A stretch of DNA of 45,650 nt from positions 1 through 45,650 of IMG/VR virus record IMGVR_UViG_3300005096_000116; one strand, given 5' to 3'. Shown here one piece after another: positions 2,320 through 45,650 of this stretch. The notes beneath the pieces were generated by a model that saw only the letters and a program-made list of their open reading frames with translations, searched no databases and was not told the DNA's origin. Source of the DNA: a virus. Numbering within the stretch: position 1 is the stretch's first letter; each line of letters opens with the position of its first letter. A program made the translations under genes and the position numbers.

Positions 2320-3816
2320 ATGACCGACCTACTCACTCCACAGCAACTTCACGACTATCAGAAAGTAGCAATTAATCACATGGCAGTTCACCCGGATAGC
2401 ATGCTGTGGCTCGGGGTCGGGCTTGGGAAAACAATTGTCACACTTACTACTATAGTAGATAAAATGCGTGCGGGTCATGTGCAGAAAACGTTAATACTTG
2501 GTCCACTGCGAGTCATACAGTCAGTGTGGGCGCGTGAAGCAAGAGTGTGGACACACACCAACCATTTACGTTTCAGCATCATTCATGGCACCAAAGAGAA
2601 ACGCTCACGTGCATTGTTCGCAGACGCTGATGTGTATCTTATTAATTATGAGAATTTAAACTGGTTAGCTGAACAACTCGATCATTATTATATCTCCCAG
2701 GGAAAGCCACTGCCGTTTCAGATGGTGGTCTATGACGAGGTGTCGAAACTGAAGAACAGCACCACGCTCCGCATGGCCGGCGGCGACCGGGATCGTAAAG
2801 ATGGGCGTGGTGAGCACTACAAAATTAAAGTTACAGGGTGGCGTAAGATCCTGTCACATTTCAAATATCGAACCGGCCTCACCGGGACACCTGCATCGAA
2901 CGGTTACCTTGATCTGCATGGTCAGTTCCTGGCTGTCGATGGCGGCGAACGACTCGGTGAGTTCATCACGCATTATAAAGATAGTTACTTCACCAGCGAT
3001 TACAGCGGGTGGAACTACACGCCGACTGATTTAGGTAAGCAGTGGATCGAGCATAAGATCAGTGACATCACCGTGAAGATGGACTCACGCGACTATCTCG
3101 ATCTGCCCGACTGTCAGGTGACGAACCTTATGGTTGACCTACCAGCAGCCGCACGCAAAGCCTACAAGGAAGTTGAGAAGAACATGTTCACTCAGCTTGA
3201 CAGCGGCAGTGAGGTTGAAGTGTTCAGCCGGTCGTCGGTGTCAAATAAGACACTCCAATTTTGTAACGGTAGCCCATACCTCAACAGTGAATCACCAGAG
3301 TTTGAAGTACTACACGATGCGAAGTTAAACGCACTTGAAGACGTATTAGAAGAAGCAGGCGGGTCGCCGGTGCTGTGCAGTTACTTATACAAAGCTGATG
3401 CAATACGCATTATGAAGAAATTTAAAAAATATAAACCAGTGAACCTCACTACGACACCATCGAAGGATACAGGTAAAGTCATTGATAAATGGATACACGG
3501 TGATATTAAATTAATGGTGGCTCACCCTGCAAGTTGCGCTCATGGGATTAACGGGTTACAAAAGAGTGGTCACATCGTCGTATGGTTCGGCATCAACTGG
3601 TCACTGGAACTGTACGACCAGATGAACGGTCGCATTGATCGTCAGGGTCAGACTCACCCTGTATCAATCATCAGAATATTATGCAATGATACAATTGACC
3701 TGGCTGTGGCCGATGCGATAGGGCGTAAGACTGATAATCAGGAAGGACTTAAACGCGCATTACAGCGTTACCGTGATGGTGTGACTACGAATGATTTGAC
3801 TGTGAACTTTTTCTGA
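2320..3816 (+). CDS. SNF2-family (SF2) helicase/ATPase
   Basis: Motif I LGVGLGKT, motif II DEVSKLKN, motif III LTGTPASN, motif VI QMNGRIDRQGQ. Confidence 0.9.
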   Translation: MTDLLTPQQLHDYQKVAINHMAVHPDSMLWLGVGLGKTIVTLTTIVDKMRAGHVQKTLILGPLRVIQSVWAREARVWTHTNHLRFSIIHGTKEKRSRALFADADVYLINYENLNWLAEQLDHYYISQGKPLPFQMVVYDEVSKLKNSTTLRMAGGDRDRKDGRGEHYKIKVTGWRKILSHFKYRTGLTGTPASNGYLDLHGQFLAVDGGERLGEFITHYKDSYFTSDYSGWNYTPTDLGKQWIEHKISDITVKMDSRDYLDLPDCQVTNLMVDLPAAARKAYKEVEKNMFTQLDSGSEVEVFSRSSVSNKTLQFCNGSPYLNSESPEFEVLHDAKLNALEDVLEEAGGSPVLCSYLYKADAIRIMKKFKKYKPVNLTTTPSKDTGKVIDKWIHGDIKLMVAHPASCAHGINGLQKSGHIVVWFGINWSLELYDQMNGRIDRQGQTHPVSIIRILCNDTIDLAVADAIGRKTDNQEGLKRALQRYRDGVTTNDLTVNFF

Positions 3817-3818
3817 TT

Positions 3819-4127
3819 ATGAAACTAAGAAGAATTAAATCGCTAAAGGTTAATTGCTACCAATTTAAAATATTGTGGAATAAAACACATGACGGTGGTA
3901 GTTTTAATTACCAGAAGCAAGAAATAGAGATAGGTGTTGAATGTGGGAACGATAATGAAATATTAATGGTTATATGCCATGAATTAATGGAAATATGCGC
4001 TGTTGAGATGAATGTAAGGCTAAGAAAACCGGATTGCAGTGATGATTACATATTTGTATATGACCACAGGCAGCATGAAACTATGATGAATATGTTTTCA
4101 GGTTTATTAAGTCAATTTATTAAATAA
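3819..4127 (+). CDS. Hypothetical protein (102 aa), last gene of the plus-strand arm
   Basis: ORF track; starts 3 nt after the SNF2 stop. It contains HELME, which is not a true HExxH. Confidence 0.55.
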   Translation: MKLRRIKSLKVNCYQFKILWNKTHDGGSFNYQKQEIEIGVECGNDNEILMVICHELMEICAVEMNVRLRKPDCSDDYIFVYDHRQHETMMNMFSGLLSQFIK

Positions 4128-4136
4128 TCAATCCTT

Positions 4137-4472
4137 CTAATGCTGAAATTTACCAACCACAAACATAACAACAGTCACAACACCGGTGCCAATAGCACCC
4201 CACTTCAAGCACCATATCATGAAGTCCTGCACACCACGCCCGACACGTGCAGCACCCTGGAAATCTTTGTGAAGTTGGATCACTGAGCTGGTGTCATCAA
4301 CTAACGACGATACTGACCTGGTTAATTCAGACACAGCAGCGGTGTTGATCTTCTGAGCTTCGATGAGCTTATCAAACTTGGCACCTTCTTCTTCTTCGTG
4401 CTTTTCAAATTTAATAACATGCTGCTCAAATCGTTGACATAAATCATTCATCAGATCTGTTTCTTTGGTCAT
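4137..4472 (-). CDS. C-terminally membrane-anchored protein, lysis-cassette member (spanin-like or holin partner?)
   Basis: Coiled-coil-like N-terminus, one C-terminal hydrophobic segment (WGAIGTGVVTVVMFVVG). Last gene of the late operon, next to holin-like and endolysin genes. Confidence 0.45.
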   Translation of the reverse strand: MTKETDLMNDLCQRFEQHVIKFEKHEEEEGAKFDKLIEAQKINTAAVSELTRSVSSLVDDTSSVIQLHKDFQGAARVGRGVQDFMIWCLKWGAIGTGVVTVVMFVVGKFQH

Positions 4473-4473
4473 G

Positions 4474-4998
4474 CTACACCTTCTCTACTAACTGTTTCGT
4501 TTTCTCTTTACTGCCGGCACTTGAACCAAAGAAGAAATTGTAAACCTGTTCAGCTTTCGATGACACCTGACCCAACACGAAACCGAGTAGTGTACTTTCT
4601 AAAGTGACTTTTCCGGACAGCACCCAAAATACAACACCGAAGAAGCAAGTAACGGTGACTGTTGCCAGTATAGGTACAACGTAACTTTTCGTTTCTTTCT
4701 GAAGTTGACGCGCTGATGCACGATCATCTGCTGCTATCTTCTCAAGATCAACACCAAGTTTAGCCATTTCTGTTTCAAAGGTCTGATCAGCTTCTTTAAG
4801 TTTTAAAAGAGTCCCTGGTGATGCAGTAGCAAGTGCTTTGGCAATGTCAGTTTCTTTAGCATCTTCATTCAGACCCAGTGCCGATGTCAGTGCGTTCATC
4901 GCAACACCACCGACAGGACCACCTAACGCAGTACCAATCAACGGTGCAATAGTTCCGACTAAACTCTTCCAATTAAAATCACTCATCGTGTATCCCAC
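4474..4998 (-). CDS. Holin-like membrane protein (174 aa)
   Basis: Gly-rich hydrophobic N-terminus, two hydrophobic segments near the C-terminus (VVPILATVTVTCFFGVVFWVL, LLGFVLG). Immediately downstream of the endolysin, overlapping its stop. Confidence 0.5.
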   Translation of the reverse strand: MGYTMSDFNWKSLVGTIAPLIGTALGGPVGGVAMNALTSALGLNEDAKETDIAKALATASPGTLLKLKEADQTFETEMAKLGVDLEKIAADDRASARQLQKETKSYVVPILATVTVTCFFGVVFWVLSGKVTLESTLLGFVLGQVSSKAEQVYNFFFGSSAGSKEKTKQLVEKV

Positions 4999-5381
4999 CT
5001 GGCTGGTCCAATAGTTCTAGTATCGAAATGTGTCCGATTAATATATCGACCCATGCCACAACGTCCTGAATATTCTAACTCAAGATAATCAGCAACACGA
5101 TCAGGGTCAATCTGTTCATTTGTGCGCCCTATATACAGTTTAAAATCAGCAGCACGTGCATAAATATGTTGTGAGTTTGGTGCGCCACCAACATCTGCGT
5201 TGTGTTCTTTACACCGGTTTGGTCCTGTGATTTTAATGCGGACAGTGGTGCCGAGTTCTTTAGCAAAATGATCAACGCAACCCTGCAATGCTTCAACAAG
5301 CTCAACATCAACGGTGTCAAATCCGCAACCACACTCACATGCAAATTCTTTTCTGCTTAAATTTTTAGTTAATTTTCCGAT
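4983..5381 (-). CDS. Peptidase M15A-type (zinc D-Ala-D-Ala carboxypeptidase-like) endolysin. Track ORF is 4983..5288; the conserved domain extends upstream to about 5381.
   Basis: Zn motifs SQHIYARAAD (H-x6-D) and THFD; NRCKEHNADVGGAPNSQH. The in-frame upstream extension encodes KNLSRKEFACECGCGFD, typical of the family N-terminus, but holds no ATG/GTG/TTG before TTG 5288. Confidence 0.8.
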   Translation of the reverse strand: MGKLTKNLSRKEFACECGCGFDTVDVELVEALQGCVDHFAKELGTTVRIKITGPNRCKEHNADVGGAPNSQHIYARAADFKLYIGRTNEQIDPDRVADYLELEYSGRCGMGRYINRTHFDTRTIGPARWDTR

Positions 5382-5563
5382 AAGTCACCTGTTTTCTGAG
5401 CATCTTTAATTTTCTGAGCATCTTTAATTTTCTGAGCATCTTTAATTTTCTGAGCATCTTCAGATAATGCTTGCATCACATGATTATATGCAGGAACTTC
5501 GCTGCCTTTAAGTTCAGTACGTGAAAGAAATTCAACACACAATTCAATAGCTTCTTTATCCAT
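5369..5563 (-). CDS. Hypothetical protein with DAQKIK tandem repeat (64 aa)
   Basis: ORF track; abuts the tailspike stop; contains an 18-bp in-frame tandem repeat. Confidence 0.55.
   Translation of the reverse strand: MDKEAIELCVEFLSRTELKGSEVPAYNHVMQALSEDAQKIKDAQKIKDAQKIKDAQKTGDLSEN
5392..5460. repeat. 18-bp tandem repeat, 3 perfect copies plus a 15-nt partial copy (ttttctgagcatctttaa)
   Basis: Read directly; in frame, encoding (DAQKIK)x3 then DAQKT. Confidence 0.95.
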
Positions 5564-7305
5564 CAGTTAAGTACTCTCAATGCTCTATAACCAGTGCCAC
5601 CACTATCAGCAGCACCTACTTCAATTCGTTTTAACGCACCACCGACATAGATCTCTACTGAGTTAGTAGCATCTCCATCAAATTGCATGGCTGTTAAAGT
5701 GTTTATGCTGTCGTAAATATTTAAATCATTAGTAAGATTTTTCTGTATGAGCCAATTGTCTGTACCTTGATCTGAAAAAGTAATAGTTGTGTTTTTAGTA
5801 GCTGTTGATCCACTGTCCAGCTTCAACCCTATATCATAGTCTGCACCGTTAGTAATGATTAAAGTTTGATTCCCACCATTAGACATTTTAACAAAGTTGG
5901 ACAGCGTAGCTATGCCACTGATATCTATAATATTAGTATGATTCCCTGTTACTTTTAAAACAGAATCTGAATTGCTTTCATCAAATATAGCTGCGTTTTG
6001 GAATGCGTTCACGGTGTCTGTAACACCACCGGGGTCTTTGTAAAAGTGAACGCCGTTTGAATAACATCTGGATAAAGAGACACCTTCATTCCACCATTTC
6101 ACACCTGTTGAATCATTCACCCACACGGTCGCGGCAGAGGTAAGACGACCATTACTACCACTATGACCTATGATCTCTATTGCGTTTTTCCTATAAGCTG
6201 GGGTAGATGAACCAGAGAACGGGTCTGTAATTGCATTACCAAATGTTCCTGCGACTTCAAATTCAACAGCCCTGACCATTCCGTCTGTGCCAGTAGCGTC
6301 TTGCAAAGCGCCGATGTTCTGCGCCCATAGATGCTTTCTGCCGTTCAAGTTGTTAATGATAACTTGTTGTGCAACAAAATCATTAGCTGCTGGTGTTGCT
6401 GTGGGGTTGTCGCCAATAAGTATTTGTTGACCAGCAGCTTCGCCCGCTGATGTTGATGAAGGGTCTGATAAAATAAACAAAGGTCCCCTGGTATTTGGAA
6501 GATATTTACCAATGCTAATAGCAGGGATAGCTTTAGTGTTGATTGTCGCACCATTACTATAAAAAGTTACACTGTGAGCGAATGTCAAAGACCCTACGGT
6601 ATAGTTAACACCATTAGATAGACGAAGTTCACGAGAAGCAGTGATGGCTGCTTGAAATTTTACAGTTTCATCACCGGAACCTACTGCACCAAAATCAGCA
6701 ACACTGGGTATGTCTAAATCTTTACTTTCCTGAGTTCTATTAACTCCACCTGTAAAATTATTCCCTGCGGAATATGTGATAATGTCAGCGTTTGTAGGTA
6801 CACCGGATGTCGCTAAATCAATATTTTCTATACCTGATAAATCACTTTTCCAACGGAGATATTTAACAGCATCAGGTGCATCTAAAGTTAAATTCAATGA
6901 ACCACTGTAACTGTCCTCTAACTTCATAGAACGATCAAATGTATCACGCAACTGCTGAATCAGAAATGTAAGATGATCCATCTGTGCTTCATGAATGTCC
7001 GGGAAGAACGCACCCTGCGATGAGAAATCTGTCAACTGATTCTCAGCACGATTCGATCTGATGTACCATTGATAGTTAGTTGGTAGGTTGCCGGCCAGTC
7101 GAACGAGCGTACCGCCGCCATCGACACCGATATTATTGACAGTGTAGTCTGTGTCAACGACGAGCAGCGTCTGTACACCCAGGTCGGTTGTTTCATAAAC
7201 CGATAGTTGAGTTTTATCAACAACAGTGAAGTCATATGAATAAGTATCATTCAGGTTATTGCCGACGTATGGGCCGGACGTGATGTTCAGGGTGCTGACT
7301 GTCAT
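5563..7305 (-). CDS. Tailspike / tail fibre protein (580 aa)
   Basis: Position after the ejection proteins. The N-terminal segment resembles podovirus tailspike head-binding domains. The Gly/Asn/Thr/Ser-rich remainder is consistent with a beta-helix. Confidence 0.65.
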   Translation of the reverse strand: MTVSTLNITSGPYVGNNLNDTYSYDFTVVDKTQLSVYETTDLGVQTLLVVDTDYTVNNIGVDGGGTLVRLAGNLPTNYQWYIRSNRAENQLTDFSSQGAFFPDIHEAQMDHLTFLIQQLRDTFDRSMKLEDSYSGSLNLTLDAPDAVKYLRWKSDLSGIENIDLATSGVPTNADIITYSAGNNFTGGVNRTQESKDLDIPSVADFGAVGSGDETVKFQAAITASRELRLSNGVNYTVGSLTFAHSVTFYSNGATINTKAIPAISIGKYLPNTRGPLFILSDPSSTSAGEAAGQQILIGDNPTATPAANDFVAQQVIINNLNGRKHLWAQNIGALQDATGTDGMVRAVEFEVAGTFGNAITDPFSGSSTPAYRKNAIEIIGHSGSNGRLTSAATVWVNDSTGVKWWNEGVSLSRCYSNGVHFYKDPGGVTDTVNAFQNAAIFDESNSDSVLKVTGNHTNIIDISGIATLSNFVKMSNGGNQTLIITNGADYDIGLKLDSGSTATKNTTITFSDQGTDNWLIQKNLTNDLNIYDSINTLTAMQFDGDATNSVEIYVGGALKRIEVGAADSGGTGYRALRVLN

Positions 7306-7341: not shown

Positions 7342-10300
7342 TTACTCACGGTCAGGACCAAATGCTAACTCTTTCAATGTAATTTCTTCACCTTCTTCAA
7401 GGTACTGGTATATTTCGTCGGATGTAGCCCAAGTCTGTGCTGCACCCGGGATATGAAATATAGTAGCTGCAAAAGTGAATATCCCTTTTTGTTGTGCTCT
7501 CGTCACTTCTTCACCTTCGTATAAATTTGAAGCTGCGCCATATATACTCTCAAGCCCGTTACCCACCAAATTAAAAGCTGGTGATGCATTGAATTTATGA
7601 TAATCAGACACAAACACATTCGCAGCGTCCCTTGCGTAAGGTACAGTACCTATGGTGGTGCTTGCCATCTTTGACATTATACGCTTCATATACTCATCTG
7701 GCTCTTCGTCTTCTTCAGGTTCAGCTTCACCTCTTATCAGCAATTCATACATAGTTGTGGCGAAAATCATGTAAAATATACCGGCTGCGAATTGAGATGA
7801 GCTGACCCAACCCTGCTTTTTACCTCTAACCAGCGTCCTTTGAACATTGAACGCTGTGTTAAACCAAGTCATGAATGAGAAAAACAATCTTGCTATCTGA
7901 TTATTAGTACCTAACATCGCACTCATGTTACTAATGTCACCTGAACCCTGTGATTGATCTACGAGCCAATCCGCATATTCAACAGCTTTAGATTCATCAC
8001 CCTCAAAATCAACCATACCTTTCTCAAACCCAGCGTGCCATACAGGAAAATCAACCACATACAGCTGGACATAACCTATTCCCATCATTGATGCACGTCT
8101 GAACGAAGCGATCTTTCCTTCTTTTACTTCTATCTGTTTCATAGCATCATTGAATTCTCGATCAAATGTTTTTAACCGGTGTCGTAATACTGATGATTTA
8201 AGTAGAGCAAAATCACGAGCAGCCCACCCTTCTTGTCCGTTGATAGGGATAGTTTTCAGCATACTCATTATACCTTGTGGTATATAACCTTTACCTTCCA
8301 TCATCAATGTTCTGGCAGTGAATAACCCTGATGGTTGTATTAATATAGTACTCAATTTATAACCTAAATATACATAAGTCATACCGGTACGAAGATGCCT
8401 GGCTAAGTTTGAACCAAACACTTGCGCTTCAGTAGCTCGACCACCTTTAGCTACACTACTCAACCACACATTCATCTTAGCGTACTCTTCTTTACCTAAC
8501 TTCCGTTTAAGTTTCATTGATATTACAGGGTCACGTATAATTTTATTCACTTGTCGAACTGTGTCGTAGTGAGTGATGTAGTGAATAACTTCCTGAAAAT
8601 GATCAGTAATCACACCAAGGTCGAAACGAATTGGCGCGTAGAACTCAGTACGCGTATGAGTTGCACCGGCTGTTACAGACTGATTCAAACTACCGAGTGT
8701 AGAAAACATTGATTCGAGTCGTGCTTCACGTTTGTCTTTAAAATCAGCAGCCCTCGCATCACGATCATGATCATATTGTAAAGTGTAATAACCACCTTTC
8801 ATTTTTCCAAACTTAGTTTGGAACTCAACCGGGTCTACCTTTTTAGGTGTCAGCCCAGTACCTTTAAGTGTTGTCTCAGATAATAAAGGGTACAAAGAGT
8901 CCATTGAATCCCATACTTGTTTTACTATTGACCAATCACTTTCTGTCATGTGATCTAAAACAGCTTGAAGTTTGGGGTTATTAATTGTTATCTCAGCTTC
9001 ATTATCAGGGTTAGCCCACCCTTCCCCAAGTAACATTTTACGAAGGTTACCAGCATTACCAGCATTCAATGCAACAGACAGTATTTGATGCCCATACAAA
9101 TAAGTATTAACAGGCACGTTATCTTCGTCCACTGCAGCTATCTCTGGAATGTATATTTTTTGGTGCATACGTTTCAAATCAGTATTAGGTCGGTTCTTTA
9201 TCGCAGTGATTAAAGGTAACGCTGTACTTTCCCATAAAGTCAATTCTTCATCTCTTGCTACAACAGTTGGTCTGTGAATTAAGGAAGTCATCAACCCAGC
9301 TGGTTCACCTTTATCTAACCAGAATGTCATAAACGGAACCTTTGACATCCATGAAACACCTTCACTTGAAACACGTTCAGTCCACTTTACTTTCCCTGTT
9401 ATCTTTTCAAGTAACGTATAACCCGTTTCATCTTTGCCTGTGGTGCGTTCCGGCCTAAATACGGTATCAAGTTTATCAAGATGATTAATTATTTTAGATT
9501 TTAACTTATCAAATTCGATACTCTCTTTTAGTAGAGTTATCTTATTTGCGTACTTGGCAACATACTCAATGTTCTTCACCGAGTCATTGATGCCCTGTAA
9601 GTCTGTGAACGGAACATTTTTCCAGTGAATCACGTAGGACTCATTCAAAACCTGCTTTGATAGCACCAATTCTTCACCATGTTTTTCAAGACGTTCTTTC
9701 GCCCACAGATTAATGCTGTCAACATCCTTCAGTGTTGCTGACTTTCTGAACTCGAAGCGTTCAAGTATCTTGACGATCTGATCCCAGTAACCACCTTCAG
9801 CTTTCATGATGGCTTCACGAACTTTCTTTTTACTGTAACGTGACATACGGTCGACGATTTTCACAGTGTCATTTTTCGCAGCTGTCGCCGCCATGCCGAG
9901 ATAATAGTTCAACACCTGACGCATCTTCGCAGCAGCAGCACCTTCACGGTTACCTTCAACCAGCATCCGAGCAGATTCCTGTGCAGCGCGGATCTCAGCT
10001 TTGCGGTATTTACCCGGGTGAATCTCACGGAACGACAGTCTGCCGATGCGTTCTTCAGCTAATGCTTTAATGGTTGCACGGTCAATCGTCGGCGCGTTGG
10101 TGCCACGTGCAACCATCTTCAGCTCATGCAGTAGCAACTTACCACGTTCTTCATCCCGCACTGCCTCATCAGCTTCACGCTCAATGGTGCCGTCGGTGAG
10201 AATATCACCATGGCGTTCAACCATTTTCGCTTCAGCGTTGACCTTTGCCTGGTCTTTGATAGCCGGTGCAGTGATCAGGTCAATCAACATCTCAGACCCG

Positions 10301-31787: not shown

Positions 31788-32607
31788 AACATATCACCGT
31801 TGAAATCAATTAGTTATGCCGAGTGTATCACCGGTTGATAATAAACTGCAAATAAGGTGATATTCAGCACTGTTTCGCTGGAACGCTCAGAATGTTTTAG
31901 GGTCGGTCGTTTTACTGTATTAACCGACACAGTTAAATCAGTTTAAAAACATGGAACGACACAATGAAAAAAATCATAATGTGTTATAAATCACATGCTT
32001 ACTCTAAGAATCAATAACCTACCACATACGAGTTGACCACAGGTTGAGCACTCAATCCTGAGAATTGAAGAGTCTCTCATTTCACAGGTTGGGGTATTCG
32101 TTTTCACTAGTATGTCCTAAGTCATTGATTCTTATTTCACCGTCTATATGAATCAGTTACTTAGGGCATACCACTACCCATAAAGAGATACTTACGATCC
32201 TATATAAATCAATGACTTACCACATATATCTCTTTAGTATAGGTTACTTGTTCAAAGTAGGTATGTCTCATATAACTTATTGATATATAAAGAGAAAATA
32301 GAAAAAGTTAAACGACTTTCGGTCGTTTGTCCTAAGCTGTTGATTGTTAGCATAAGTCATTGATATACAAGAAGAATAAATCCGACACATAGTTTATTGG
32401 GTCGTTTGTCCTAAGTCATTGATTTTTTAGTAATATCCGACACAATGAAAATCAGTAAATTATCGTCTTGAAATGATGCAAATCGAGTCATTTTAATATT
32501 GTTAATTAAATCACATACTTACTTTAAAAATCAATAGTTTACGACACCATATGTGTCGTTTGTCATTCGGTCATATAATATTCGACACAATGAAACGTTG
32601 ATTTTAC
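31788..32607. promoter_or_regulatory. 820-bp non-coding divergent hub with at least four repeat families (candidate origin / operator array / early-late switch)
   Basis: No ORF above 20 codons. CGACAC repeats (31925, 31957, 32383, 32438, 32542, 32583; inverted at 32553). TGTCCTAAGTCATTGATT family (32113, 32328, 32351, 32407; inverted at 32150-32170 and 32205-32220). 25-nt direct repeat 32321-32345 / 32400-32424. 29-nt repeat 31988-32016 / 32508-32536. Confidence 0.8.
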
Positions 32608-32973
32608 ATGTATATTCCTTATAATTCGTCACGTAACTTTAATAAACGAGGACACACAGTGAATAAAGACAACCGACTAAATCGTGGTAAAAAAGAACGT
32701 ATCACTCAAAAAGAACTTCAAAGTCGTATGTTTTACAATCCAGTAAAAGGTACTTTCATGCGAATAAAGAATGTCAGCAACAGCCACAAAGCTGGTGAAA
32801 TCATCGGAACTAATCATCACCAGGGGCACTTAAACGTCATGATTAACAGTGAAATTTATAAACTACATCATCTCGCATGGCTATACATGACCGGCGAGTG
32901 GCCAACGAAAGCCATTAGGCACATCAACGGCGACAAAACCGACAACCGTTTCTTTAATCTGAAATATACTTGA
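32608..32973 (+). CDS. HNH endonuclease (HNH_3-type). An alternative start at GTG 32659 has a GAGGA SD.
   Basis: YKLHHLAWLYMTGEWP...IRHINGDKTDNRFFNL matches the His-Me finger pattern H..aW...G....vdHiNGd..DNR..NL. Confidence 0.75.
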   Translation: MYIPYNSSRNFNKRGHTVNKDNRLNRGKKERITQKELQSRMFYNPVKGTFMRIKNVSNSHKAGEIIGTNHHQGHLNVMINSEIYKLHHLAWLYMTGEWPTKAIRHINGDKTDNRFFNLKYT

Positions 32974-32996
32974 CAACTGTTCCACTTTGTTATACT
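32970..32996 (+). promoter_or_regulatory. Sigma70-like promoter (TTGACA, 15-nt spacer, extended -10 TGtTATACT)
   Basis: ttgacaactgttccactttgttatact read directly. It shares TTGAC..TGTTCCACT with the minus-strand promoter at 39695-39722. Confidence 0.55.
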
Positions 32997-33034
32997 TTTA
33001 ATATGTAAATTAAATAATAGCAAAGGTGAATAAA

Positions 33035-33172
33035 ATGAGCGATAGAATAGAAGAACTTAAAGAAACGGTTTTCAAACTTGAATCAGAAGGATCAGAAATG
33101 GTGTATGAAAGTTTGAAAGAACTAATATATATCATCATTAATGATATGGAAGAAAGAGACAACAATGCTTAA
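33035..33172 (+). CDS. Small acidic protein (45 aa, below the track cutoff)
   Basis: AAAGGTGAATAAA-ATG initiation region. Translated by hand: MSDRIEELKETVFKLESEGSEMVYESLKELIYIIINDMEERDNNA. Downstream of the promoter. Confidence 0.55.
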   Translation: MSDRIEELKETVFKLESEGSEMVYESLKELIYIIINDMEERDNNA

Positions 33173-33329
33173 TTTCAAAGTCTACGCCGGCAACATGTAC
33201 TGTGGCATCTTATGCGTGCTGCCTGGCTGCTCCCACAACTTCCTATCACGCAGTGACATGGTGCTTAGTAACTCTGGTATCGTTAATTATCTGAAAGGTT
33301 ACAAACATTTGAAATTGGTGAGGATCTAA
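33141..33329 (+). CDS. Hypothetical Cys-rich small protein (possible start ATG 33165 overlapping the previous stop)
   Basis: ORF track only. Confidence 0.3.
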   Translation: MIWKKETTMLNFKVYAGNMYCGILCVLPGCSHNFLSRSDMVLSNSGIVNYLKGYKHLKLVRI

Positions 33330-33516
33330 TCCATGTAGGGAAAACAACTGTCAGAGGATATAAAAATGTGAATTAAGTCGTTAGAAGCGATCAACTCAAT
33401 GAAACTGAATATAGAGAATTTATAGGGTGAAGTAAAAGAACTGCTGGTGTTGAAGCTAAGGCCCGTGTGGAGCCAGCAATTCATTTATTAACACAACAAC
33501 AAAAGGTGACACTAAA

Positions 33517-33711
33517 ATGAACAACAACATTGTAACAAATAAATTTATCGATGACCTTTGCGGAAGAGACATCCAGGTTCAAGTGTTCCTGATGAACGGT
33601 ATCAAACTGGAAGGTTCAATCGTCAGTTTCGATGACGAGAGTATCCTACTATACTCAGGCAAGACACAGCTGGTGGCGCGCCAGGTCATCTCAACATTGC
33701 AGGAGAAGTGA
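33517..33711 (+). CDS. hfq: Hfq-like Sm-fold RNA chaperone (64 aa, core only)
   Basis: FIDDLCGRDIQVQVFLMNGIKLEGSIVSFDDESILLYSGKTQLVARQVISTL aligns without gaps to E. coli Hfq [59 protein letters not shown] SD present. Confidence 0.9.
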   Translation: MNNNIVTNKFIDDLCGRDIQVQVFLMNGIKLEGSIVSFDDESILLYSGKTQLVARQVISTLQEK

Positions 33712-34028
33712 TGATGAACATAGAAATAGCTAACAAGATGATGGCTGACGCTTGTGGTGTTGAAGAAACGCACAGATACATGAATGGCAGTGGTTCAGCT
33801 ACTTTTGGGTGGCTTGATAATGGTAAATTTATACACGGTAAATGGACTATCGAAGACCCGCGATGTTGCCAGATAGTAAGAGAGAAGTTCAAAATAATAA
33901 CAACACCAACAACAGATAGTCATATGTGGTTAAGCGGTGTAAATTCTTCAAGATACAGTACCGGTAAAACCATAGCAGATACAGAAATCGCAGCAATTCT
34001 ATCTATCTGTGAGGAGCTAACAAAATGA
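33708..34028 (+). CDS. Hypothetical protein (106 aa)
   Basis: ORF track; start overlaps the hfq stop; AGGAGAA SD. Confidence 0.6.
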   Translation: MMMNIEIANKMMADACGVEETHRYMNGSGSATFGWLDNGKFIHGKWTIEDPRCCQIVREKFKIITTPTTDSHMWLSGVNSSRYSTGKTIADTEIAAILSICEELTK

Positions 34029-34213
34029 CCACCTCAAACAACACAAATATATTCGGAAACTGTGCTCATTGCGGTCAGTCACTCGATGACGGTCATAAGT
34101 GCCCAGCGGATTACGATGAGTCTGAGATCGTCCAAATACTCGATGACTGCACCGATGATAAGCGCATACACCAGCTGAACCCCTTATGGGAGAGGGTGAC
34201 TGCTAATGGTTAA
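34025..34213 (+). CDS. Hypothetical small protein with a CxxC...HKC motif (62 aa)
   Basis: ORF track; ATGA start/stop overlap. Confidence 0.5.
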   Translation: MTTSNNTNIFGNCAHCGQSLDDGHKCPADYDESEIVQILDDCTDDKRIHQLNPLWERVTANG

Positions 34214-34595
34214 GTTCATAAACATCGCAGATTTAAAAGACCCAAACGATTCTCAAAGTAGAACTTACAGGGAAGTGAACAATGGTACACCACATAAATA
34301 TGACATTGGTGATTTAATCGAGATAACTACCGGTGTAAGACTTTTCGTAGCACAACATAAACGTGACTGTGATGGTACACCACTTTACACACTCACACCT
34401 GAAATGAGAGATGAAAATGATTCACTTAAAGAAATGTGTTTTGTGTATGGTTACTCAGAAGACGATATGAATGAATCATTTAAAGTAAGAATGTTTAACA
34501 CACCAAACAATAACCCATCATGCTTCGGGAAAAAGTTAGATGTCGAAGCATGTAACAACGGTTGTCCTGTGTCAGATGAATGTTATAAACAATAA
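34206..34595 (+). CDS. Hypothetical protein (129 aa)
   Basis: ORF track; RLFVAQHKRDCDGTPLY motif and a Cys-rich C-terminus. Confidence 0.6.
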   Translation: MVKFINIADLKDPNDSQSRTYREVNNGTPHKYDIGDLIEITTGVRLFVAQHKRDCDGTPLYTLTPEMRDENDSLKEMCFVYGYSEDDMNESFKVRMFNTPNNNPSCFGKKLDVEACNNGCPVSDECYKQ

Positions 34596-34610
34596 TCAAA
34601 AGGTGAAACA

Positions 34611-34892
34611 ATGAGTGAAGCAATGAGTGAAGATGAGCTGATAAATGAAATTGACGAGCTGTGGTTTGTTGATTTCACAGGATACAGTGGGGAATCTCCG
34701 CCAAGTAAGGAATGCCGTGAAGATATAAAACAAATCATAGCCCTGATACGCAGATCAGACCGCCAGAGATTGAAGGTAGCTATTGAGTTACTACCTGTGT
34801 TAGAGGCGAGAGATCAACAAAGAGAAATTGATTGCTATCCTGCGATTGCTACCGATAAAGCCATTGATAACATACTAGGAGATATCAAATGA
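34611..34892 (+). CDS. Hypothetical protein (93 aa)
   Basis: ORF track; AAAGGTGAAACA-ATG. Confidence 0.6.
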   Translation: MSEAMSEDELINEIDELWFVDFTGYSGESPPSKECREDIKQIIALIRRSDRQRLKVAIELLPVLEARDQQREIDCYPAIATDKAIDNILGDIK

Positions 34893-35050
34893 CAAAACGT
34901 GAACTGTTACTTTTATCAATCCTGGGGACTGTTCTCAGTATCAGAATGCTGATAAACGGCGGTGAGATATTACGATTGATCGGTTGCTTTTTACTGTTTC
35001 CATCGGTGTATTTCATGGTGATTAATAGTAATGAAGATGTTAATAAATAG
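34889..35050 (+). CDS. Small membrane protein (53 aa, below the track cutoff)
   Basis: Hand translation MTKRELLLLSILGTVLSIRMLINGGEILRLIGCFLLFPSVYFMVINSNEDVNK; ATGA overlap with the upstream stop; two hydrophobic segments. Confidence 0.5.
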   Translation: MTKRELLLLSILGTVLSIRMLINGGEILRLIGCFLLFPSVYFMVINSNEDVNK

Positions 35051-35052
35051 GT

Positions 35053-35304
35053 GTGATTATGGAAAAACCAACAATACCAGAAGTGATGCCGTTAATTAAA
35101 GCATACTACGCAATTTCGGGTAACGGTGTTGGCGGGAACCTGCACATCATACTAGACGATGGGAACATCGATAATGAAGATGTTAAGTTTTGTCTTGATG
35201 AATGCAAAAAATCATGTGACTCTGAAGGTGTTATTTTATGTGGGTTACTTTTACGTATGTCAAAAACTCAGCGGCGAAAGATGTATAAGATGTCGCACAC
35301 ATGA
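35053..35304 (+). CDS. Hypothetical protein (83 aa; [12 protein letters not shown] motif)
   Basis: ORF track; likely ATG start at 35059. Confidence 0.55.
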
Positions 35305-35492
35305 ACACCAGGCGCTGCACCAAATGCAACTCGATGACACAGGTGATCGATTCACGTGTTAACGGTGACGGGCATATCAGGCGTAGGCGTGAGTGTCCAA
35401 GATGTAAAGCACGCTGTACCACGTATGAGTCATCGTATGATGAACTACGGCGTATAAAAGGTAAGCTTGAAAACTACGAAGCAATTAATTAA
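35301..35492 (+). CDS. NrdR-like zinc-ribbon protein lacking the ATP-cone (63 aa)
   Basis: [38 protein letters not shown] aligns to the E. coli NrdR N-terminus [40 protein letters not shown]. The protein ends about 20 aa later. Confidence 0.8.
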
Positions 35493-35639
35493 TCTGATCA
35501 CCAAAGCGAACAAAGAGGTTGCGAAGAATGCCATTAAGTTAAGAATGTTCAACACGCCAAATAGTCCTATAGCAAAAGTGTCAAACGAAATTTATATAGA
35601 TACTATATATGTCATAGACAGGGTGCTAGGGGAACCAGA

Positions 35640-35954
35640 ATGACAACATGTAACACTGACAAAGATACCACGATACTGCTGCATCACATGAGCAACACAC
35701 AGCTGGTCAGTTACGCTGATGATGTTCACATATCCTTTGACTCATCTGAGTTGATTAAAGAGCTGTGTGACCGTCTGACTAAGCTTGGTGATAGCAAACA
35801 CATATTGAACAAAGATACAGGGGTGATCAGTTCACCATTTGATATAGAATCAATTTTACAATCATGCCCTGTATTATTGGCAAAATGGAAATACCATCCT
35901 TTTACCTTTGAAGAAACAGAAGAAGGTCATGTGGTTGTGGTTTATATTAAATGA
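35640..35954 (+). CDS. Hypothetical protein (104 aa)
   Basis: ORF track. Confidence 0.55.
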   Translation: MTTCNTDKDTTILLHHMSNTQLVSYADDVHISFDSSELIKELCDRLTKLGDSKHILNKDTGVISSPFDIESILQSCPVLLAKWKYHPFTFEETEEGHVVVVYIK

Positions 35955-36127
35955 CCACCACCTGCAAAGCTTACCGCACAAGCACCGGTGACTACGTCTG
36001 TGACCGCTGTAGCATACAATGGGATAAGAACGACACCAAGCCACCCTGTAGAATTTTAACACCCAGGAAAGCCAGTGAGCACGTTCACCGGCTATCAATG
36101 GATCAGATCAACGCGATGCTAAGTTAA
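35951..36127 (+). CDS. Small Cys-rich protein (58 aa, below the track cutoff)
   Basis: Hand translation MTTTCKAYRTSTGDYVCDRCSIQWDKNDTKPPCRIL...; ATGA overlap with the upstream stop. Its 3' end overlaps the convergent minus-strand gene by 9 nt. Confidence 0.45.
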   Translation: MTTTCKAYRTSTGDYVCDRCSIQWDKNDTKPPCRILTPRKASEHVHRLSMDQINAMLS

Positions 36128-36337
36128 TGCTTCGCTCAACCACTTTGAATAGTTTGCAGCTTTTTCAGCATCGCGTTGAGGATTCTCAGGTGTTTTGTGC
36201 ATCATTCGACATTGATATTTAATAGCATTACCTAGTAAATAACCTTGATACTGTTCAGGTGTCAATTTAGCTTTAATAATGTCAAGTGTTTCAATTCCAC
36301 CAACATCATAGTAATTACTTTTCTCGTCTTTACTCAT
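36119..36337 (-). CDS. DUF3310-family protein (72 aa)
   Basis: YYDVGGIETLDIIKAKL...LLGNAIKYQCRMMHK...DAEKAANYSKWL fits the DUF3310 pattern. Confidence 0.7.
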   Translation of the reverse strand: MSKDEKSNYYDVGGIETLDIIKAKLTPEQYQGYLLGNAIKYQCRMMHKTPENPQRDAEKAANYSKWLSEALT

Positions 36338-43062: not shown

Positions 43063-43136
43063 TGCCCGTTAGTGTAGTGGTAACACACCGAACTTTGACT
43101 TCGGTATCATAGGTTCAAATCCTGTACGGGCTACCA
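43063..43136 (+). tRNA. tRNA-Gln (anticodon UUG), CCA encoded
   Basis: Hand-folded cloverleaf: U8 A9, D stem gtgt/acac with a GG loop, anticodon stem ccgaa/ttcgg, loop c-t-TTG-a-c, T arm atagg-TTCAAAT-cctgt, acceptor gcccgt/acgggc, discriminator A, then CCA. Position 1:72 is U.U. Confidence 0.8.
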
Positions 43137-44074: not shown

Positions 44075-45650
44075 ACCCCGACTTCATCTTCAATGTAACA
44101 ACCGGCGACATCAGCTACGATATTGAAACATTCCCCAACGTCTTCACCATCAAGCTGCTGCACAAGACAACACGTCGTCGTTGGTACTTTGAGATAAGTT
44201 ATCGAAGGAACGATATCGTATCGTTCTGTCGCTTCATCGATGTGCTGGCACAGCAAAGTGTACGCATGGTTGGGTACAACAACATCGGGTTCGACTACCC
44301 GGTGATTCACTTCATCTATCGTAACCAGCACGCAGGCATCGGTGCTGCTGAGATTTATGAGAAAGCAATGTCGATCATCAACGCACATGGTCCAGCCAGG
44401 TTCGCTCACATGGTGTGGGAATCTGAGTGGTTAGTTGAGCAGATTGACCTATATAAGATCCACCACTTCGACAACATAGCAAAAGCCACCAGTCTGAAAG
44501 TGCTTGAATTCAACATGCGTATGGACAGCATTGAAGATCTACCGTTCCCCGTTGGTACTGTGCTCAATGATGAGCAGGCTGACACACTCGCTGAGTACAA
44601 TGAGCACGATGTCGATGCGACTGATATGTTTCTGGAACGTACACAGCCACAGATCAAACTACGTGAACGACTGAGTGAACAGTTCGGCAAGAACATGATG
44701 AACATGAGTGATGTCAAGATGGGTGAAACCATTCTGGTCACCGAGATGGAGCGACGTGGCATTTCATGCTATGAGTACGTCGGTAATAAGAAAGTCAAAC
44801 GTCAAACTAAACGTGAATCAATTGATCTAGGTCAAGTCATCTTCCCTTATGTGAACTTTGAATCACAGGCGTTTCAGCAGATTAAAATATACCTGGAATC
44901 CAAAGTTATCACCGAGACGAAAGGTGTGTTCAAAGGACTCATCGCTACCATTGATGGTCTAGATTACCACTTCGGCACCGGCGGTATGCACGCATCGGTT
45001 GAGTCTCAGGTGGTGCATACTACTGATACACACCAGCTGGTTGACGTAGATGTGGCTGGTTTCTATGTACAAATGGCTATTAAAAATAAACTTTATCCGG
45101 AGCATCTTGGTATTGAATTTTGCGAGGCTTATAAAGGTGTATCAGATACCCGTAACACGTTTAAAAAAGGCACACCGGAAAACGAAGCGTTTAAATTAGC
45201 AGGCAATGGTGCGTATGGTGGTAGTAACAATGACTACTCACCATTCCTTGACGCAAAGTACACTATGACAATCACCATCAACGGTCAGCTACTACTGTGC
45301 ATGTTGATTGAACAACTGGTGAAGGTTCCTGGGTTGCGTATGATACAGGCGAACACAGACGGCGTGACGTACTTATGCCCGCATGATTATCTTGAGCACA
45401 CCAGTTCATTGTGTCGGTGGTGGGAAGGTGTCACTAAACTTGAGCTTGAAGAAGCACTGTATAATCGTATGTTCATCAGAGATGTGAACAGTTACATCGC
45501 TGAGAAGACTGACGGCAAACTTAAACGCATAGGAGCATACGCACATGTCACAGCAGAAGAGAACCCAGGCACCAGGGAACTTCCGTATCACAAGGACTGG
45601 TCATCGAGAGTGGTTGCCCTGGCAGCTGAGGCTGCTCTTGTTAGGGGCGA
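44071..45650 (+). CDS. DNA polymerase, family B-like with a DEDD 3'-5' exonuclease domain, N-terminal part (open at the window end; continues at 92..557)
   Basis: Hand translation from ATG 44071. ExoI YDIETFPN, ExoII YNNIGFDYPVIHF, ExoIII YNEHDVDAT. Pol motif A DVDVAGFYVQ (D..S/G-L/F-Y), motif B KLAGNGAYGG (K...N..YG), motif C QANTDGV (DTD-like). No stop before 45650. Confidence 0.85.
   Translation, partial: MNPDFIFNVTTGDISYDIETFPNVFTIKLLHKTTRRRWYFEISYRRNDIVSFCRFIDVLAQQSVRMVGYNNIGFDYPVIHFIYRNQHAGIGAAEIYEKAMSIINAHGPARFAHMVWESEWLVEQIDLYKIHHFDNIAKATSLKVLEFNMRMDSIEDLPFPVGTVLNDEQADTLAEYNEHDVDATDMFLERTQPQIKLRERLSEQFGKNMMNMSDVKMGETILVTEMERRGISCYEYVGNKKVKRQTKRESIDLGQVIFPYVNFESQAFQQIKIYLESKVITETKGVFKGLIATIDGLDYHFGTGGMHASVESQVVHTTDTHQLVDVDVAGFYVQMAIKNKLYPEHLGIEFCEAYKGVSDTRNTFKKGTPENEAFKLAGNGAYGGSNNDYSPFLDAKYTMTITINGQLLLCMLIEQLVKVPGLRMIQANTDGVTYLCPHDYLEHTSSLCRWWEGVTKLELEEALYNRMFIRDVNSYIAEKTDGKLKRIGAYAHVTAEENPGTRELPYHKDWSSRVVALAAEAALVRG
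45560..45650. repeat. Second copy of the 91-bp terminal duplication
   Basis: Identical to 1-91. Confidence 0.95.

Follow-up and report, generated by a model that had tools for sequence, protein, structure and literature searches.

The viral record IMGVR_UViG_3300005096_000116 of IMG/VR, analysed here over its whole length of 45,650 nucleotides (the window), encodes a 63-residue protein that consists of the zinc ribbon of the bacterial repressor NrdR followed by a short helix, and that lacks the nucleotide-sensing ATP-cone. NrdR is a near-universal bacterial switch of deoxynucleoside triphosphate (dNTP) synthesis and is studied as an antibacterial target. The phage protein, designated mini-NrdR, is most probably a functional, nucleotide-blind DNA-binding protein of the NrdR type that works as a ribbon pair. 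With regard to its target, the NrdR boxes of the host or host NrdR itself are tentatively favoured. The gene and the parts of its product are located as follows (positions are those of the window):

35301–35492, plus strand: mini-NrdR gene, 63 amino acids, ATG to TAA with the stop codon included (from the list of open reading frames (ORFs), PF22811 and AlphaFold)
35313–35429, plus strand: zinc ribbon, residues 5–43 (from alignment to E. coli NrdR, published residue roles and model strands)
35436–35486, plus strand: C-terminal amphipathic helix, residues 46–62 (from DSSP on the model)

Residues 5–43 match positions 2–42 of the 42-position Pfam profile Zn_ribbon_NrdR (PF22811) with an expectation value (E) of 2.3e-11 and 43.9 bits (gathering score 27.2), and the second-best Pfam family reaches 20 bits. 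In a phmmer search of the PDB, NrdR chains are the only significant matches (E ~2e-5), the alignment partner in E. coli NrdR being residues 3–46. All NrdR motifs listed in a preliminary description of this DNA are present, namely C6..C9, V15-I-D-S-R19, G22.G24..I26-RRRR30.C32..C35 and T40-T-Y-E43. An AlphaFold model calculated from 126 relatives, with a predicted local distance difference test (pLDDT) score of 89.4, displays strands at residues 14–20, 26–31 and 38–43 according to DSSP, followed by a helix at residues 46–62. The nine best Foldseek matches of this model are all E. coli NrdR, with a root-mean-square deviation of 1.2–1.5 Å over 41–44 columns and 46–50% identity. A generic zinc ribbon was rejected, since the significant matches in Pfam, PDB and Foldseek are to NrdR only.

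The polypeptide stops 20 residues past the ribbon. Accordingly, the alignment to the full-length NrdR model TIGR00244 is restricted to positions 2–44 of its 147, and the score of 37.4 stays below the cut-off of 124.65, in agreement with the earlier statement that the ATP-cone is missing; the profile search for NrdR and the ATP-cone proposed at that time thus returns the NrdR ribbon above the PF22811 cut-off and confirms the truncation. The two ORFs downstream of the gene have no Pfam match and hence hold no frameshifted remnant of the cone. In combination with the distinct loop lengths described below, this led to rejection of a frameshifted nrdR. Because the ATP-cone is missing, mini-NrdR would be expected to lack the nucleotide-dependent switching between oligomers (tetramer, octamer, dodecamer).

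The residues by which NrdR ribbons bind DNA and each other are retained almost completely. In the cryo-electron microscopy structure of S. coelicolor NrdR with DNA, one ribbon pair occupies each box, R12, R26–29 and R37 contact the backbone, and D15 and R17 read conserved G:C pairs of the box palindrome; the bound DNA is kinked by ~90 degrees at its AT centre and the tetramer is built by ribbon pairs (PMC9110341). By alignment, D17 and R19 of mini-NrdR are the counterparts of the base-reading pair, and R27–R30 together with R38 are the counterparts of the backbone-contacting R26–29 and R37. The sole DNA contact that is lost is the arginine or lysine at position 12, which is replaced by Q14. 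In E. coli NrdR the ribbons pair via E42 with R27 and R29, and the E42A variant is monomeric and does not repress (bioRxiv 10.1101/2025.03.28.645925); here the salt-bridge residues R27, R29 and E42 correspond to R28, R30 and E43. Among stand-alone relatives of mini-NrdR the reading aspartate is kept in 87 of 102 ribbons, the arginine in 98 of 102 and the exact RRRR arm in 78 of 102, and R28, C32 and E43 are invariant across the 126 family sequences. Since both the DNA-contact and the pairing residues are kept, constitutive binding to NrdR boxes and dominant-negative pairing with host NrdR would both be structurally possible.

In its architecture mini-NrdR resembles NrdR, represented by TIGR00244, K07738 and the PDB entries 7P37/7P3F, 9FXK and 9GEX, in the N-terminal C4 ribbon, the D-S-R triplet, the RRRR arm, the arginine before T-T-x-E and the pairing glutamate. 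However, it differs by the absence of the ATP-cone, and with it of ATP/dATP sensing and of the cone dimer, by one residue fewer in each of two loops, and by being phage-encoded. The four cysteine ligands C6, C9, C32 and C35 form a CX2CX22CX2C pattern instead of the canonical CX2CX24CX2C, and a 20-residue amphipathic helical segment stands where the cone would be. The hydrophobic residues of the helix (L49, I52, L56, Y59 and I62) are spaced 3-4-3-3, a tail pattern common to the closest relatives P0002, P0271, P0001 and P0003. In the model this helix may represent a candidate self-association surface in place of the cone dimer.

Mini-NrdR is not an isolated case, as stand-alone ribbons form a large family whose gene surroundings are mostly phage-like. 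In an exhaustive HMMER search of 1.84 billion cluster representatives, 654 clusters were found at E <= 0.001. When the best 150 of these and the query were classified, 115 of 151 were stand-alone ribbons, 20 were canonical NrdRs or fragments thereof and 16 were multi-domain proteins. The stand-alone ribbons have a median length of 77 amino acids and a median tail of 34 amino acids after the ribbon. For the present purpose, the mini-NrdR group is defined by PF22811 as the only domain, a length of about 130 amino acids or less and a tail other than the cone, and thus includes the 63-residue query. When a profile of the closest relatives served as the query, more than 100 additional proteins of 52–120 amino acids with PF22811 and without PF03477 were listed, and several further PF22811-only proteins sit on phage-sized contigs of 30–57 kb. 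A locus search with a seven-sequence alignment gave only five viral loci, in a scan of a single metagenome 77 of 80 loci carried canonical NrdR, and a profile that included two full-length NrdRs returned canonical NrdRs only. Similarly, a tblastn search of GenBank phages with the 63-residue protein gave no match even at E = 10, which reflects sensitivity and not absence, and the relative P0003 found 30 records.

Two measures separate the stand-alone ribbons from canonical NrdR. Of 45 canonical ribbons, 42 have eight residues both between the first CxxC and D-x-R and between D-x-R and RRRR; most stand-alone ribbons have 7 and 6–8 there, with 7,7 in 41 of 102 and also in mini-NrdR. Moreover, mini-NrdR scores 70.1 bits on a hidden Markov model (HMM) of stand-alone ribbons built without the query and 58.1 bits on an HMM of canonical ribbons, the reverse of E. 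coli NrdR with 60.5 and 77.2 bits, respectively. These values place the stand-alone ribbons in a lineage distinct from canonical NrdR, and mini-NrdR is not a broken nrdR. It is very improbable that the gene is the decaying remnant of a captured host nrdR, i.e. a functionless truncated pseudogene. The absence of the cone fits such a remnant, and the cone has been reviewed as important for DNA binding by NrdR (PMC4009431). However, apart from the missing cone remnant downstream, decay is difficult to reconcile with the 12-bit better score on the stand-alone model (E. coli NrdR shows the reverse by ~17 bits), the family-type 7,7 loops, a tail helix conserved in relatives at 50–60% identity, the existence of hundreds of independent stand-alone clusters and a start codon that overlaps the stop codon of the upstream gene.

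The nearest relatives P0002, P0271 and P0272 are 52–60% identical to mini-NrdR over nearly the full length; P0001 and P0003 are ~50% identical, and all five have the amphipathic tail pattern in common. PHROG families 36879, 10675 and 9414 match the query, none of them with an assigned function. Isolated phages carrying stand-alone ribbons include Bacillus phage 1 (ORF6, 60 amino acids), Geobacillus phage GBSV1, Halomonas phage YPHTV-1 (51 amino acids) and Blautia phage Montmirail (WAK79239, 52 amino acids); of these, the proteins of Bacillus phage 1, YPHTV-1 and Montmirail were scanned, and all three exceed the cut-off of PF22811 and have no PF03477. In databases the phage proteins are labelled 'hypothetical protein' or have been automatically named 'nrdR'. 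The carriers are unrelated, comprising the podovirus described here and temperate siphophages of Bacillus, Halomonas and Blautia. Like mini-NrdR, their products of 50–120 amino acids consist of the ribbon and a short tail, and the genes lie in the early or replication modules of 35–47-kb phages. They differ from it in being 35–60% identical, in tails that cannot be aligned beyond the closest relatives and in their neighbouring genes.

Among these neighbours, a helicase loader or helicase precedes the gene in Bacillus phage 1 and YPHTV-1, and a single-stranded DNA-binding protein (SSB) gene follows it in contig L126; AAA_24, dCMP deaminase, dCTP deaminase and NTP pyrophosphohydrolase genes are found elsewhere. 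No neighbouring gene is conserved, even among the closest relatives, and therefore the mini-NrdR gene moves on its own. None of the contigs of the closest homologues (0.5–3.7 kb) has a neighbouring gene in common with the window or is enriched in CGACAC, a motif described below. A marine phage contig (TARA), L127, carries mini-NrdR at 10001–10204 and its own class II ribonucleotide reductase (RNR) at 3495–5822, in addition to a dCTP deaminase and a glutaredoxin-like gene. Other arrangements include a tandem ribbon pair in P0007 and P0017, and ribbons placed after a helix-turn-helix (HTH) domain in P0004, after a sigma-like region in P0040 and before a GIY-YIG-like nuclease segment in P0015. 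The domain itself is already known, and its stand-alone form is present in Pfam, PHROGs and some GenBank records; a literature search found no paper describing the stand-alone family. The split from canonical NrdR by loop length and HMM score appears to be new, as does the profile-level link to Ogr/Delta presented below.

In its entirety the window corresponds to one complete phage contig, circularly permuted and ~45.56 kb long, as concluded from a 91-bp direct terminal repeat (1–91 and 45560–45650) and from a gene that runs across the junction:

From upstream of 44150 (start not mapped), across the junction, to 557, plus strand: DNA polymerase gene, spanning the contig ends

Judged by gene content, the phage is a podovirus of the T7-like structural type without RNA polymerase. 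Virion genes were recognised for a portal, a major head protein, a tail tube protein, a 2314-residue internal protein and terminase, and replication genes for a primase, an SNF2 helicase, a Gp2.5-like SSB and a DUF2800 exonuclease. Its relationship to Vibrio phages 1.185.O and 1.021.A-C is only distant, with 75% nucleotide identity confined to the primase gene. The statement of the preliminary description that the genome has no RNR genes is borne out in two ways. ORFs of ~250 amino acids and above were assigned to replication or virion families, with two short exceptions of 261 and 246 amino acids, so that all ORFs long enough for an RNR subunit fall in other families; and in a tblastn search of the junction-wrapped genome with E. 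coli NrdA, NrdB, NrdD and NrdG the best E was 1.4. Class II RNR was not queried directly, and no unassigned large ORF able to encode it is left. Among the other carriers, the annotations of Bacillus phage 1 and YPHTV-1, the two complete genomes checked, contain no RNR either.

The binding site of NrdR has the consensus acaCwAtATaTwGtg, ACACWATATATWGTGT (PMC4009431), and the arrangement looked for was a pair of 16-bp boxes ahead of RNR genes of the same genome, with their centres ~31–32 bp from each other. Within the phage genome no match to ACACWATATATWGTGT occurs at <=3 mismatches (1.14 expected), and ACAC-N8-GTGT is found nowhere. As positive controls, the same scan detected the E. coli nrdA box with 2 mismatches and the nrdD pair with 3 mismatches each, 31 bp apart; weak boxes such as nrdA box 1 would be missed. 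Nine other mini-NrdR loci or genomes show no excess of boxes, and there is no canonical box in the 255-bp gap upstream of the class II RNR of L127.

These observations lead to a model in which two copies of mini-NrdR would pair via R28/R30–E43 salt bridges, perhaps aided by the C-terminal helix, and would bind a C/G-flanked AT-rich dyad in the manner of an NrdR ribbon pair, regardless of the ATP/dATP ratio. Mini-NrdR would then act in one of two ways, by occupying the NrdR boxes of Vibrio nrd promoters or by pairing its ribbon with that of host NrdR, the choice of target being the weakest step of the model. Mixed pairs would break the ribbon-mediated NrdR tetramer that is needed for tight two-box binding. 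In both cases, transcription of the host RNR genes would be uncoupled from dNTP sensing while the RNR-less phage replicates. De-repression of the host RNR genes, rather than their repression, would tentatively be the favoured outcome within this model.

Four considerations argue for a host target. Firstly, the reading head is conserved across unrelated phages and therefore points to a common target, of which the NrdR box is the only universal one known. Secondly, neither this genome nor nine other carriers provide a canonical box, so that a target of the box type should reside in the host. Thirdly, NrdR needs two boxes, and a single box lowers the affinity 530–1000-fold (PMC12051234); since the tetramer is held by ribbon pairs, a capping ribbon could plausibly disable the repressor. 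Fourthly, this phage has no RNR of its own. Precedents for contact of phages with this node exist: a two-hybrid screen showed binding of orf6 of Cp-1 to pneumococcal NrdR (PMC4840434), and infection with SpSL1 induces the NrdR regulon (PMC6755750). By analogy only, mini-NrdR resembles decoy or micro-proteins that poison oligomeric regulators, in which the oligomerisation surface is kept and the control domain is gone. In contrast to a pure decoy, its DNA-reading residues are conserved too, which a decoy would not need.

Several points weigh against a host target. Mere poisoning of host NrdR would not require the conserved base-reading aspartate and arginine, and mere occupancy of boxes should repress, which seems harmful to an RNR-less phage. 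Both loops differ from those of canonical ribbons (7,7 versus 8,8), which may shift the preferred dyad spacing. The ribbon is found fused to HTH, sigma-like and GIY-YIG-like modules, suggesting a general-purpose DNA-binding module, and L127 combines the gene with an RNR of its own that has no box upstream. The family is, in addition, homologous to Ogr, a regulator of phage promoters. Finally, host NrdR de-represses by itself as dATP falls, so that the benefit to the phage is not obvious.

The homology to Ogr directs attention to the phage's own control region. It comprises the following elements:

31788–32607, no strand: hub, an AT-rich (33% GC) intergenic region of 820 bp between the leftward virion genes and the rightward early block
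32541–32559, no strand: perfect dyad ACGACAC-CATAT-GTGTCGT with 7-bp arms and a 5-nt spacer, the only dyad built from CGACAC
32310–32328: twin-like dyad AAACGAC-TTTCG-GTCGTTT with 7-bp arms and a 5-nt spacer
Within the hub, both orientations: a ~25-nt element, GTCGTTTGTCCTAAGTCATTGATT, and its complement, in 7–9 copies
31792–31798, 31826–31840 and 31857–31863: TATCACC/GGTGATA motifs, including the near-palindrome TATCACCGGTTGATA

The hub is a candidate regulatory region. Its CGACAC motifs start at 31925, 31957, 32383, 32438, 32542 and 32583 on the plus strand and at 32553 on the minus strand, i.e. seven copies in 820 bp where 0.3–0.4 are expected (Poisson P ~2e-7). The six copies, the pair 32 bp apart and the palindrome at 32541–32559 reported in the preliminary description were therefore counted correctly, and the seventh copy on the minus strand is added. 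However, the link drawn there between these repeats and NrdR boxes was not supported, and the repeats were rejected as NrdR boxes: no box is present at <=3 mismatches in a scan with positive controls, six of the seven copies are co-directional, each member of the pair 32 bp apart has 6 mismatches to the box, and the core of the dyad measures 13 bp from ACAC to GTGT versus 16 bp in the box. Four copies lie within a 20-nt direct repeat, TAATATYCGACACAATGAAA, which is exact in two cases and 80–95% identical in two, and two copies fall into the spacers of other dyads (31920–31936 and 32375–32398).

The perfect dyad ends 14 bp upstream of a perfect TATAAT (32574–32579) and thus occupies the –35 position. 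If mini-NrdR acts on phage DNA, this dyad would be the candidate operator of its own operon. As regards a possible reading of CGACAC as sigma-70 promoters, the copies at 31925, 32438 and 32583 have a –10-like hexamer 3–4 nt upstream, none of them with a properly spaced –35 element. Both dyads listed above are followed by TTGTC and score as terminator-like hairpins, and these two hairpins may end short hub transcripts. A 51-nt direct repeat (31976–32026 and 32496–32546) and one pair of the GTCGTTTGTCCTAAGTCATTGATT type with 26-nt arms separated by 10 nt (32110–32171) complete a repeat layout reminiscent of origin iterons or of an array of operators. The hub gave no match in Rfam. A search with the 20-mer TAATATYCGACACAATGAAA yielded four contigs from one metagenome, which are otherwise dissimilar and contain the motif once, in a GC-rich coding region; a search with the 16-mer GTCCTAAGTCATTGAT yielded 19 single matches, equal to the chance expectation. 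The TATCACC/GGTGATA motifs, situated 5–76 bp upstream of the first leftward (virion-side) ORF, resemble operator half-sites of the lambda type, yet the genome contains no recognised gene for a repressor or integrase.

Ogr acts on RNA polymerase through contact with its alpha subunit, and the Delta protein of P4 is a covalent double Ogr. With hhalign, the profile of the 126 family sequences aligns with P2 Ogr over the whole ribbon (92.6% probability, E 4.7e-7). Conversely, the second-best Pfam family of P2 Ogr is Zn_ribbon_NrdR with 16.8 bits, and the relatives P0346 and P0363 match Ogr_Delta (PF04606) with 25–27 bits at a cut-off of 26.3. Like mini-NrdR, Ogr is a small phage protein with one ribbon, a tail and CX2CX22 spacing; in both, S-R follows the first strand and [FC]-x-T-Y-E-S the second knuckle. 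Where mini-NrdR has D-S-R, R-R-R-R and CX2C, Ogr has T-S-R, K-E-R-Y and CX4C, respectively. In the literature, Ogr is described as a zinc-binding protein of 72 amino acids with a CX2CX22CX4C pattern, which activates P2 late promoters carrying TGT-N12-ACA (PMC3931495). The CX2CX22CX2C pattern of mini-NrdR is nearer to this spacing than to the canonical NrdR pattern. By these comparisons, the stand-alone family sits between a repressor of host RNR genes and a late-gene activator of phages.

Only somewhat less probable than a host target is that mini-NrdR is an Ogr-like regulator of the phage's own promoters, which binds the dyads of the hub and either shuts off early or switches on leftward late transcription. 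With Ogr/Delta of P2/P4 as the model, an example site would be the ACGACAC-N5-GTGTCGT dyad, which covers the place of a –35 element for the TATAAT at 32574–32579. Besides the profile-level homology of the family, such a role would agree with the common architecture of ~60–75 amino acids with ribbon and tail, with the tandem-ribbon relatives P0007 and P0017, which recall P4 Delta, with the position of the gene ahead of late genes, inside early or replication modules, in six phage contexts, and with the strong enrichment of CGACAC in the control region, including one perfect dyad directly upstream of a perfect –10 element without a –35 element. However, the query itself has no match to Ogr_Delta (PF04606) even at E <= 10, and TGT-N12-ACA does not occur in the hub at 31788–32607, its 14 occurrences genome-wide being at chance level. 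The co-directional CGACAC copies, four of them embedded in a longer direct repeat, are ill-suited to a symmetric dimer, and the dyad also scores as a hairpin or terminator. Moreover, the short contigs of the closest homologues have neither such a motif nor shared neighbours, and phage-specific operators would not be expected to go with a reading head that unrelated phages have in common.

It is rather unlikely that the small basic zinc ribbon serves another purpose, as an accessory of origin function or recombination, in binding RNA or protein, or in counter-defence; its NrdR-like surface would then be turned to a different partner. The gene often adjoins replication genes (helicase or helicase loader, SSB, AAA_24), the hub with its iteron-like 25-nt repeats, its hairpins and an hfq gene 900 bp away is equally origin-like or small-RNA-like, and none of the matching PHROG families has an assigned function. 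An integrative model of NrdR bound to Soj (ParA), PDB 9a6n, provides at least one proposed protein partner, and NrdR ribbons may thus have such partners. On the other hand, there is no positive evidence for any specific alternative, and the residues conserved in the family are exactly those by which NrdR contacts DNA and pairs its ribbons; therefore sequence-guided binding of double-stranded DNA is the simplest reading.

Mini-NrdR is encoded in a same-strand block of ~17 small early ORFs (32608–36127), which is located after the 820-bp intergenic region and ahead of the primase gene. Within and next to this block, and elsewhere in the window, the following features were identified:

32608–32973, plus strand: HNH endonuclease, first ORF of the early block
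33517–33711, plus strand: phage Hfq, 64 amino acids (Pfam Hfq, 44.3 bits at a cut-off of 27)
34025–34213, plus strand: small cysteine-rich ORF, 62 amino acids, in the early block, no Pfam match
35053–35304, plus strand: 83-residue ORF upstream of the mini-NrdR gene, its TGA overlapping the ATG of the latter (ATGA)
35951–36127, plus strand: small cysteine-rich ORF, 58 amino acids, in the early block, no Pfam match
36119–36337, minus strand: DUF3310 protein, adjoining the primase gene (64.9 bits)
43063–43136, plus strand: tRNA-Gln (anticodon TTG), the single tRNA gene, on which ARAGORN and Rfam agree

The 83-residue upstream ORF has no Pfam match, and the mini-NrdR gene is probably translationally coupled to it. 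A sigma-70-like promoter, TTGATT-16-TATAAT at 32598–32625, lies inside the called start of the HNH ORF, and therefore the true start of this ORF may be further downstream. The products of the 62- and 58-residue cysteine-rich ORFs may be additional zinc-binding proteins and, as such, alternative candidates for binding to the hub. Since the hfq gene is situated ~900 bp downstream of the repeat- and hairpin-rich intergenic region, the latter might encode small RNAs that partner the phage Hfq.

A natural, sensor-less NrdR of 60–80 residues provides a ready-made probe of ribbon pairing and box recognition without the ATP-cone. If mini-NrdR is directed at phage promoters, late-gene control of the Ogr/Delta type would extend far beyond P2-like phages, and the origin of the DNA-binding domain of NrdR would be tied to phage transcription factors. 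If it is directed at the host, it would represent a new route to DNA precursors for phages without RNR. One may speculate further, with considerable reserve, that cone-less ribbons are a widespread phage device against host NrdR, which sit on its boxes or cap its ribbons and thereby free RNR transcription from ATP/dATP feedback. In that case, a micro-protein that mimics a host repressor would account for the ability of many small phages to manage without an RNR of their own.

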